Virus record (IMG/VR): IMGVR_UViG_3300027693_000024
Span: 1 to 25,220 of that record
Source of the DNA: a virus
Taxonomy: Duplodnaviria; Caudoviricetes
Length of the DNA stretch: 25,220 bases
Direction: 5' to 3' (one strand)
In this document: positions 4,054 through 5,621 of the stretch, piece by piece
How the letters are laid out: every line of letters begins with the position of its first letter
Position numbering within the stretch: position 1 is the first letter of the stretch
The notes under the pieces: model-generated
What the model was told of the DNA's origin: nothing
Database searches by the model: none
Seen by the model: only the letters and a program-made list of their open reading frames with translations
Translations under genes and position numbers: made by a program

Positions 4054-4501
4054 TATCTAGCGCAATTTTATAGCTTTTTATTTGGTATGGTGATATTTTT
4101 TCACCCCCAACATGGCGGTCACGAAGTTTTTTAGCCCATCTCTTATGGTCAATTTTGCCGTTTTCATCCTTTGGTGCTTTAAACGCTTTTGCAACGATTT
4201 CAGCCAACACACGGTCAACCAGTTCAATTGGTGCTTTTGAAGCGTCCAAAGCAATTGTGGTTGGCCTGGGTGCTTGTTTGCATAAACTCTTAAACTCAAT
4301 TAGGTTTGGGCAACGGTCTGGTAGATTTTTTAATGCCCAACCAATAACATTTAGGTTGTCAGAAAACATCCCAAGTTCATGCGCCCAGGCTGACTTCACT
4401 TCGTTTAACGGAATACCATTCCACTTATTTTTAAATTCAGAACCGTATGTCATAGACAAGCGATCAAACAAACGTTCAACAGCAGCAATTGATATTGTCA
4501 T
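4043..4501 (-). CDS. Replication-associated protein (position of helicase loader/P-like gene)
   Basis: 152 aa, ATGA-coupled to the initiator. The P-N-L-x-E-F-K-x-L-C motif is typical of genes following lambdoid initiators. Confidence 0.55.
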   Translation of the reverse strand: MTISIAAVERLFDRLSMTYGSEFKNKWNGIPLNEVKSAWAHELGMFSDNLNVIGWALKNLPDRCPNLIEFKSLCKQAPRPTTIALDASKAPIELVDRVLAEIVAKAFKAPKDENGKIDHKRWAKKLRDRHVGGEKISPYQIKSYKIALDMLS

Positions 4502-5247
4502 TTTTTTATCCTTAGTAAATTGTTTGTGGATTCCATTTCAAAAATATCTTTTTCAAATGTTGGCTTTCTACCAGTTGCGCTTTCAAACCACTCACGATTC
4601 TGCTTTACCCAAGGTTGTTCATTGTCTTTGCTTTCAGCTCGTTGCTTTCGTATCCAGTTGCGCCATGTGGCAAACCAATCAGCTTTGCGTTTGGCTTCAG
4701 AAATCCAATAATCTTTAAACCCGTCTGCAACTTGGTTGATATTAAGATCAGGTCTTTGCTCTTTTGCCCATATTGCCCATTCGTCAGGCAATTCCCAATC
4801 TTTCGATAATTGGCTAGTTTTTGTTTGGGCAGCTTTAGCTGCTAACTCTTTTAATGGTTCTTGTTTAGTGGTTAGTGGTTCTTGTTTAGGGTTATTTTGG
4901 GTTAGGCTTGGGTTAGGCTTGGGTATCCCATGGGTTTTTTTTGGCCTACCACCCTTGATTCCATTAAGTTTTTGCTTATCAAGAAAGCCATGATAATTAG
5001 CTATTTCAGCGTCTGCACGACGATTTATGTACCCGTTTTCGGTGTGTTCAAAGAACTCAACAAGTATCGCTTTTACAATTCCTGCTTCGATTCTTAATCT
5101 ACGGGAAACCCATGGGATATCAGTGGGTATTGGTGTTTCAGTGTCGTAATACATATCCAGAAGTCTGCGATATGTAATGTCCTCGATTGGGGACAAGTGC
5201 ATCGTGTGTTTGTTGTAATCACCGATGTTGAATTGATAATAGTGCAT
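4498..5247 (-). CDS. Phage replication initiator (DUF1376/YdaU-like N-terminus)
   Basis: MHYYQFNIGDY...T.HLS..E...YRRLLDMYY N-terminus, KGGRP followed by an iteron-encoded linker, and C-terminal F.DYW...K.DW.ATWRNW. Confidence 0.85.
   Translation of the reverse strand: MHYYQFNIGDYNKHTMHLSPIEDITYRRLLDMYYDTETPIPTDIPWVSRRLRIEAGIVKAILVEFFEHTENGYINRRADAEIANYHGFLDKQKLNGIKGGRPKKTHGIPKPNPSLTQNNPKQEPLTTKQEPLKELAAKAAQTKTSQLSKDWELPDEWAIWAKEQRPDLNINQVADGFKDYWISEAKRKADWFATWRNWIRKQRAESKDNEQPWVKQNREWFESATGRKPTFEKDIFEMESTNNLLRIKK
4855..4937. repeat. Iteron-like repeats, probable replication origin inside the initiator gene
   Basis: TGGTTCTTGTTTAG x2 and GGGTTAGGCTT x2, with GGGTT/GGGTA cores recurring at about 11-bp spacing. 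Confidence 0.7.
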
Positions 5248-5257
5248 CTCAAACCTT

Positions 5258-5348
5258 AAAAAAAAGGCTTCACCTGAACACGCAATTCCTTTTTTAAGGG
5301 AATCTGGCAGGACGAGCCAACACTCGCTGCGTATTCATGTGAAGCCTT
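5258..5348 (-). ncRNA. C4/P4-CI-like three-way-junction structured RNA with U8 tail
   Basis: Minus strand: 21-nt stalk AAGGCUUCACAUGAAUACGCA/UGCGUGUUCAGGUGAAGCCUU, hairpin GCGAG-UGUUGG-CUCGU, 8-nt linker CCUGCCAG, hairpin AUUCCCUU-AAAA-AAGGAAU, then U8. Most G-U pairs favour the minus strand. Confidence 0.7.
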
Positions 5349-5390
5349 GTTGGAATAATCACCCCCGCCAAAGGATGCACTAATTATCTA

Positions 5391-5621
5391 TTATTTCCTT
5401 TTTTTACGCAACTCAGGCCAAATAATTTTCCAGTTGTTGATGTTGTCTTGTCTAGTCCACTGGCCATCGGATAAACGTTCTAGCTCGCCAGCCATAAAAA
5501 CTAGCTTGTCTACAGGGATACCGTTAGCTTTCCATTGACTTACGGCTGGCACACTTACGCCGCACAGTCTGGCAACCTTTGTCGTACCGCCTAAAATTTG
5601 TATGATTTCTATGTTTTCCAT
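5391..5621 (-). CDS. Cro/YdaS-like HTH transcriptional regulator
   Basis: LGGTTKVARLCGVSVPAVSQW HTH and C-terminal IWPEL. First gene of the replication operon. Confidence 0.85.
   Translation of the reverse strand: MENIEIIQILGGTTKVARLCGVSVPAVSQWKANGIPVDKLVFMAGELERLSDGQWTRQDNINNWKIIWPELRKKRK

Follow-up and report, generated by a model that had tools for sequence, protein, structure and literature searches.

Antisense control of the coupling type is a feature of the rep leaders of IncFII and IncI plasmids. In other plasmids, as described in PMC5703833, rep leaders are controlled by counter-transcribed and fully complementary antisense RNAs, which act through attenuation in pT181 and pIP501, and through sequestration of the ribosome-binding site in pSK41. 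In bacteriophages, the CI RNA of P4 ends transcription of the replication genes by pairing with seqA and seqC (PMC4825925), and the C4 antisense RNA of P1 and P7 (RF01695) combines three stems with variable boxes a' and b' (PMC5320573, PMC2864571). A further candidate structured RNA, DNAVirus_187 (Fremin et al. 2023, PMC10690425), is 49 nt long, is represented by 122 sequences, mostly from freshwater, and precedes 54 DUF1376 and 36 DUF4373 genes at a distance of no more than 25 nt.

The window analysed here, meaning the whole 25,220-nt stretch of DNA, is a linear phage record estimated to be 75% complete, in which an RNA leader lies ahead of a replication initiator-like gene. Like P4 CI, this is a same-strand leader RNA of a replication operon, with a complementary upstream site on the nascent transcript and a premature termination that is here predicted. 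Unlike P4 CI, it has neither an Rfam match nor a downstream seqC-like target, its U-tract stands directly behind its own closing stem, and it is found between cro and a DUF1376 initiator; in MW202520, a complete relative, none of the 43 genes, of which many are hypothetical, is annotated as integrase or cI. It shares with C4 a multi-stem fold, and two boxes that covary with same-strand targets, but differs in carrying a' in a junction strand, in having a single target set, and in preceding a replication initiator rather than icd-ant. As in the plasmid rep leaders, a terminator-like stem and U-tract come just before a start codon, alternative folds are available, and a helix covers the start region, here as a prediction and solely in read-through RNA; unlike in those leaders, the boxes are short and on the same strand, and relatives do not share the start-codon helix. 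The sequence-only reading of this locus had called the enclosed RNA C4-like, which holds for its multi-stem fold with covarying boxes, but not for an Rfam match or a downstream target. It had also seen a likeness to antisense-controlled plasmid rep leaders, for which the one sign of a counter-transcribed RNA is a promoter-like match confined to the closest subfamily.

At the gathering threshold there were no Rfam matches in the window, RF01695 and RF02996 included, and at E values of up to 10 there were only chance miRNA and snoRNA matches; in scans of 20 and a further 10 relative loci, no family matched this leader. A downstream target of the C4 or CI type is absent from the window, which has one a...b site, and a hexamer resembling box a occurs near the start codon in only 9 of the 133 leaders compared, in 8 of these within IGD or LGD codons. 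The same slot before a DUF1376 gene is occupied by the int-alpA RNA (RF02996) in 2 of the 20 loci scanned (L017 598-665 and L071 1405-1481), although the window's leader is a different sequence family without an RF02996 match. By eye, many more of the 80 loci fetched by initiator similarity resemble these int-alpA carriers. Going by its description in the published table, DNAVirus_187 could correspond to a portion of this leader or to a different RNA. In the literature searched on C4, int-alpA, P4 CI, N15 CA RNA and phage structured RNAs, with the PMC5737381 c4-2 and PMC10690425 alignments outside the comparison, no description of the leader came up. Judged by analogy, it would work in the manner of CI and C4, but it is not a member of those families.

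The locus and its start-codon helix

Both genes flanking the leader are on the minus strand, 143 nt apart. The cro-like gene (5391..5621; 76 aa, Pfam P22_Cro, E 6.7e-10) ends in tandem stops, TAA at 5393-5391 and TAG at 5390-5388. The initiator-like gene (4498..5247; 249 aa), assigned to DUF1376 and to a PHROG of primosomal or replication-initiation proteins, starts at the AUG at 5247-5245, and its Shine-Dalgarno-like AAGG (5254..5257, minus) lies outside the start-codon helix. Upstream of cro, the minus-strand motif TTGAGT-18-TAAGAT at 5655-5621 stops 6 nt short of the cro ATG, and this position suggests that the cro mRNA is leaderless. The approximately 135 bp between cro and erf are without a cI gene.

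The helix joins two minus-strand arms. The 5' arm (5374..5388) reads GAUAAUUAGUGCAUC, and the 3' arm (5235..5248) reads GAUGCACUAUUAUC, extending from base -1 through the initiator codons M-H-Y-Y into the first base of Q. The sequence-only reading had described a 14-bp complementarity with one bulged base, between a segment right behind the cro stop and a target holding the initiator AUG and MHYY codons, and it was accurate in each of these particulars: the arms form 14/14 Watson-Crick pairs with one bulged U, the AUG lies inside the 3' arm, and the 5' arm begins at the final base of the tandem stops. The duplex, at -18.1 kcal/mol, was matched in strength by 3/5000 dinucleotide shuffles of the 30-nt segment containing the arm, and by 9/500 shuffles when the whole 192 nt upstream was searched. 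Ranked by best upstream duplex, it is second of the 39 gene starts in the window, and comparable helices, of which the real window has two, occurred at least once in 13/40 block-shuffled windows (mean 0.45). The helix is above chance at the initiator locus, but not exceptional window-wide.

Folding, which the sequence-only reading had proposed as a check, bore the helix out as a prediction. In RNAs containing 5388-5374 its pair probabilities were 0.73-1.0, the probability of the AUG being unpaired was 0.00 with the arm against 0.46 without it, and the predicted energy of opening the ribosome footprint was 8.6-13.0 kcal/mol with the arm against 3.4 without. The helix was predicted both with and without pairing between the leader's boxes a and a', and it was abolished by trimming the RNA to about 5376, which removes the bases under a ribosome terminating on cro. 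Read-through RNA that carries the arm is likely to exist, because no terminator was called by a scan between cro and the leader; the same scan is blank at the leader itself because it accepts only loops of 3-8 nt. The 5' arm has a second potential partner, as GATGCACT at 5203-5196 (minus) recurs at the initiator's Met16-His17, where pairing would be worth -13.8 kcal/mol.

The enclosed leader RNA

The helix encloses a leader of about 120 nt, consisting of a 5' hairpin, P0, two boxes, a and b, a three-way junction and a U-tract, all on the minus strand. P0 (5361..5376), the stem of which has at least 4 bp in 132/133 leaders, displays box a (5364..5372, UUUGGCGGG) in its loop, and is followed by box b (5348..5353, CCAACA). 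The junction (5264..5348) is built from P1 (5348-5328 with 5284-5264), P2 (5327-5312) and P3 (5303-5285). Box a is complementary to a' (5303..5311, CCUGCCAGA), the junction strand that links P2 and P3, and box b to b' (5317..5322, UGUUGG) in the P2 loop. P1 is a 20-bp closing stem that runs into the U8 tract (5258..5265), 10 nt upstream of the AUG, and together these are predicted to act as an intrinsic terminator whose loop is branched.

Relatives were assembled from 80 loci fetched by initiator similarity, and from 32, 18 and 120 loci fetched by two leader patterns. From 181 leader-pattern matches, 31 duplicates and 18 unparsed sequences (no start codon, no U-tract, or truncated) were set aside, with L102 restored by hand, leaving 133 distinct leaders, of which 31 belong to the window's own subfamily 1 and 102 to subfamily 2. 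The parser demanded a U-tract and the search patterns fixed some columns, so invariance in either is no evidence. In a 30-sequence alignment the leader's 37 pairs were 99.3% paired, with two-sided changes at 16/37, a result matched by 0/500 shuffles. Cognate a/a' and b/b' duplexes beat 5000/5000 permutations in both subfamilies, with cognate and permuted energies of -15.8 and -12.7 kcal/mol for a/a', and -7.1 and -4.6 kcal/mol for b/b', in subfamily 1; the corresponding values in subfamily 2 were -11.9 and -11.5 kcal/mol, and -7.5 and -4.0 kcal/mol. These comparisons of aligned sequences show that the conserved feature is the enclosed leader, in which the stems, a/a' and b/b' covary, and not the start-codon helix.

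With a covariance model of subfamily 1, the window yielded a single copy, and 11/32 other loci tested gave a match. There is no second leader copy within the window, the plus-strand match being the same inverted repeat, and none of the 13 checked by covariance model among 84 leader-pattern matches in bacterial genomes was a match. The genes downstream of the 133 leaders include several initiator types (MHYY, MxIKNW and MKVDIW) as well as others. Some leaders, among them L089, L101, L103, L104 and L114, are followed by non-initiator genes or non-coding DNA, and therefore the slot downstream of the U-tract also exchanges. The leader constitutes an RNA family absent from Rfam, one that has 133 or more distinct members ahead of several unrelated initiator types.

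For transcripts ending at 5300-5280, the predicted fold of lowest energy pairs a with a', at a stage when P1 is still unable to close. A leader RNA and the boxes a and b of another transcript have a predicted duplex energy of -21.5 kcal/mol. In the a/a'-paired fold, the P3 region at 5299-5290 could form a 10-bp pairing with the U-tract/Shine-Dalgarno segment at 5263-5254 (minus).

The 5' arm as a promoter region and the helix in relatives

The 5' arm is likely to be the leader's own promoter region. A putative sigma-70 promoter (5383..5411, minus; TTGCGT-17-GATAAT, an 8/12 match with a predicted +1 at A5376) would place within the arm a -10 box, GATAAT, at 5388-5383, a discriminator at 5382-5377 and the first transcribed bases at 5376-5374. 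This layout, with -35 and -10 boxes separated by 16-18 nt and a purine as the start site some 7 nt further on, is conserved in position among relatives. The end of the best -10 hexamer lies 11 nt upstream of box a in 26/30 subfamily-1 leaders, as it does for the window's GATAAT, and across the 133 leaders the -35 position is T in 80% and the predicted +1 is A in 76%. At least 4/6 bases of TTGACA are present at a spacing of 16-18 in 70/133 leaders, against 6, 8, 17 and 20 at shifted positions; this -35 test is not circular, whereas the -10 boxes were picked by score, and are hence partly so. The window's own copy of the promoter may be weak: a scan for consensus promoters did not call the 8/12 match, and for that reason most of the mRNA at this locus may come from read-through.

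Because the predicted start at A5376 lies downstream of them, 12/15 bases of the arm would be missing from the leader's own transcript. The proposal that the helix blocks the initiator AUG therefore stands, as a prediction, for RNAs that contain 5388-5374, but would not extend to RNA initiated at this promoter. In phages with 96-99% identical cro genes (L337-L339), GATAAT is kept and is followed by unrelated leaders, and hence these six bases persist without the helix. The leaders of L337/L338 and of L339 (at about 930-1070) are two unrelated structured types downstream of GATAAT that follow the same logic, each having a 5' hairpin whose loop can pair with a strand of the junction, together with a long closing stem and a U-tract. 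One RNA sequencing run, with 0.15 of the words shared, has no assembled contig spanning the leader; one of its contigs diverges from the window at 5382 into a leader of the L337 type.

Conservation in homologues had been set beforehand as a test of the helix, and this went against it. The helix was retained in 0/20 subfamily-1 relatives with an MH-starting gene, with 6-11 of its 14 pairs left and the breaks falling in its core. Locus L001 has an initiator N-terminus that is 100% identical, and the same cro-promoter layout, yet its duplex reaches only -5.3 kcal/mol. In the alignment, which takes in 30 of the 31 subfamily-1 leaders (L124 left out), the helix was 60.3% paired against 59.9% after shuffling, with 182/500 shuffles as high, and its covariation of 0.115 equalled the shuffled 0.115. 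Control positions slid along the alignment were 21-49% paired; the higher value at the helix would reflect the likeness of a -10 box to the complement of Tyr codons, and of a pyrimidine-A-U start site to that of AUG. Complementarity to MHY starts was not greater for the promoters of MHY genes than for other promoters (p 0.67), and in subfamily 1 (n=31) cognate promoter/start duplexes were not better than permuted ones (p 0.58; second test 0.85). Subfamily 2 had a small cognate excess (p 0.0007), with cluster-level median p of 0.06 and 0.10. The 5' end of the leader transcript had no cognate pairing excess with the Shine-Dalgarno/AUG region (p 0.57-0.90).

As an individual case, the window remains extreme, since its promoter-start duplex ranks first of the 133 leaders, and was rare under a null drawn from the relatives' promoter columns (0 and 39 of 20,000). 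Among relatives, however, 50/17,556 non-cognate promoter/start pairings were equally strong, such that about 0.4 comparable cases would be expected by chance among 133.

Control of the initiator

The explanation that we consider probable is that the helix is an incidental, lineage-specific complementarity between a promoter and MHYY codons, and that the initiator is gated instead by the enclosed RNA, as an antisense attenuator similar to P4 CI and P1 C4. The helix is likely incidental because close relatives lack it, and because one of its arms is likely the leader's promoter. In the attenuator mechanism that we infer, transcription of the leader would start near 5376, and in the nascent RNA the pairing of a with a' would precede synthesis of the 3' strand of P1, delaying the terminator and letting polymerase read into the initiator. 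Terminated leader RNA would accumulate and act in trans, occupying boxes a and b of newly made transcripts, which would free P1 and the U-tract to form, resulting in termination and negative feedback on initiator synthesis; a possible outcome is the exclusion of phages sharing the same boxes. Only cro read-through mRNA that gets past the U-tract could form the helix, which in such RNA may reduce translation as a by-product. The leader may instead be a switch that operates purely in cis.

The helix might alternatively be a selected, lineage-specific lock, silencing the initiator in cro read-through mRNA until the ribosome terminating on cro melts the arm. Such a lock is physically plausible, in that the helix is perfect, strong, predicted whether or not a pairs with a', and lost from the fold when the bases under that ribosome are removed, but it is without comparative support, and we regard it as unlikely; in this reading RNA from the internal promoter would stay unlocked. 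An upstream stop lies within 12 nt of the -10 box in 72/132 relatives, although this adjacency would be partly automatic because -10 boxes often contain stop triplets. Leaders with a stop at the -10 box (n=73) have a cognate excess (-5.23 against -4.48 kcal/mol, p 0.0004) that is not seen in the other 60, which have no upstream stop there. Yet this excess is below 1 kcal/mol, belongs to a post hoc subgroup, and fades with clustering, being -0.67 kcal/mol without the window, with median p of 0.04, 0.08 and 0.42 at three clustering levels; a control segment farther upstream has a similar one. Read-through raised the opening energy by at least 3 kcal/mol in 21/133 leaders against 53/600 swapped controls, and by at least 5 kcal/mol in 7/133 against 18/600, with the window ranking 5th. 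Other lineages have promoter-region/start-codon helices of their own in other registers (L102, L108/L109, L113 and L135/L213; -13 to -18 kcal/mol), but L104 and L121 bear the L102-type arm before genes unable to pair with it (-5.0 and -3.1 kcal/mol), and L001, the nearest relative, lacks the window's helix despite its matching layout and N-terminus. The inverted repeat could also be read as two convergent promoters, the plus-strand one (5213..5240, TTGTAA-16-GATAAT), of which the -10 box is the helix 3' arm on the other strand, driving an antisense RNA across the leader, for which lambda OOP is a precedent. The promoter scan called this site, matches of at least 9/12 were found in 7/31 subfamily-1 leaders against 0/31 in two downstream control windows, and codon 4 was TAT in 19/19. 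The match nevertheless follows from the MHYY...DYN codons of close relatives, 0/102 subfamily-2 leaders score at least 9, the scan gave 4 sites where 2.4 were expected by chance, and no plus-strand terminator was called, leaving this highly improbable.

Two further readings concern the leader itself. Translated leader frames masked by a target box are found in P1 icd and P4 kil, and a short open frame of 14 codons (5294..5338, minus) starts in the 5' arm of P1, where box b abuts an AAGG 6 nt upstream of the AUG at 5338. Control through this frame, with box b masking its ribosome-binding site, in place of mainly a/a' antitermination, appears unlikely: the AUG is present in 65/102 subfamily-2 leaders, but ACG, AAG, CTG or CCG stands at the site in 37/102, its presence in subfamily 1 was imposed by the search pattern, and the frame varies from 4 to about 31 codons. 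A conserved leader peptide was also considered, and was rejected as a family-wide feature on this absence of the AUG and variability of length. It is a more tentative suggestion, and a doubtful one, that apparently non-integrating phages swap RNA cassettes after a fixed -10 box, using an RNA-only identity code in place of cI; it is similarly conjectural that the box sequences would then set initiator feedback, and exclude only phages with matching boxes. That the -10 region should in addition double as an anti-AUG arm, separating cro read-through from leader-initiated mRNA, seems decidedly unlikely.

If the incidental-helix reading is correct, the helix alone matters little, as a property of one phage lineage that is explained largely by a chance complementarity of two unrelated consensus sequences. 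Should the leader act in trans, it would represent RNA control of replication in the style of CI and C4 in phages that have no obvious repressor or integrase, and would supply a compact collection of orthogonal RNA switches diversified by nature. The initiator gene downstream contains a perfect 14-bp inverted repeat (4924-4937 with 5106-5119), as well as direct repeats of 11 nt (4897-4918) and 18 nt (4851-4889), and these repeats are candidate origin iterons.
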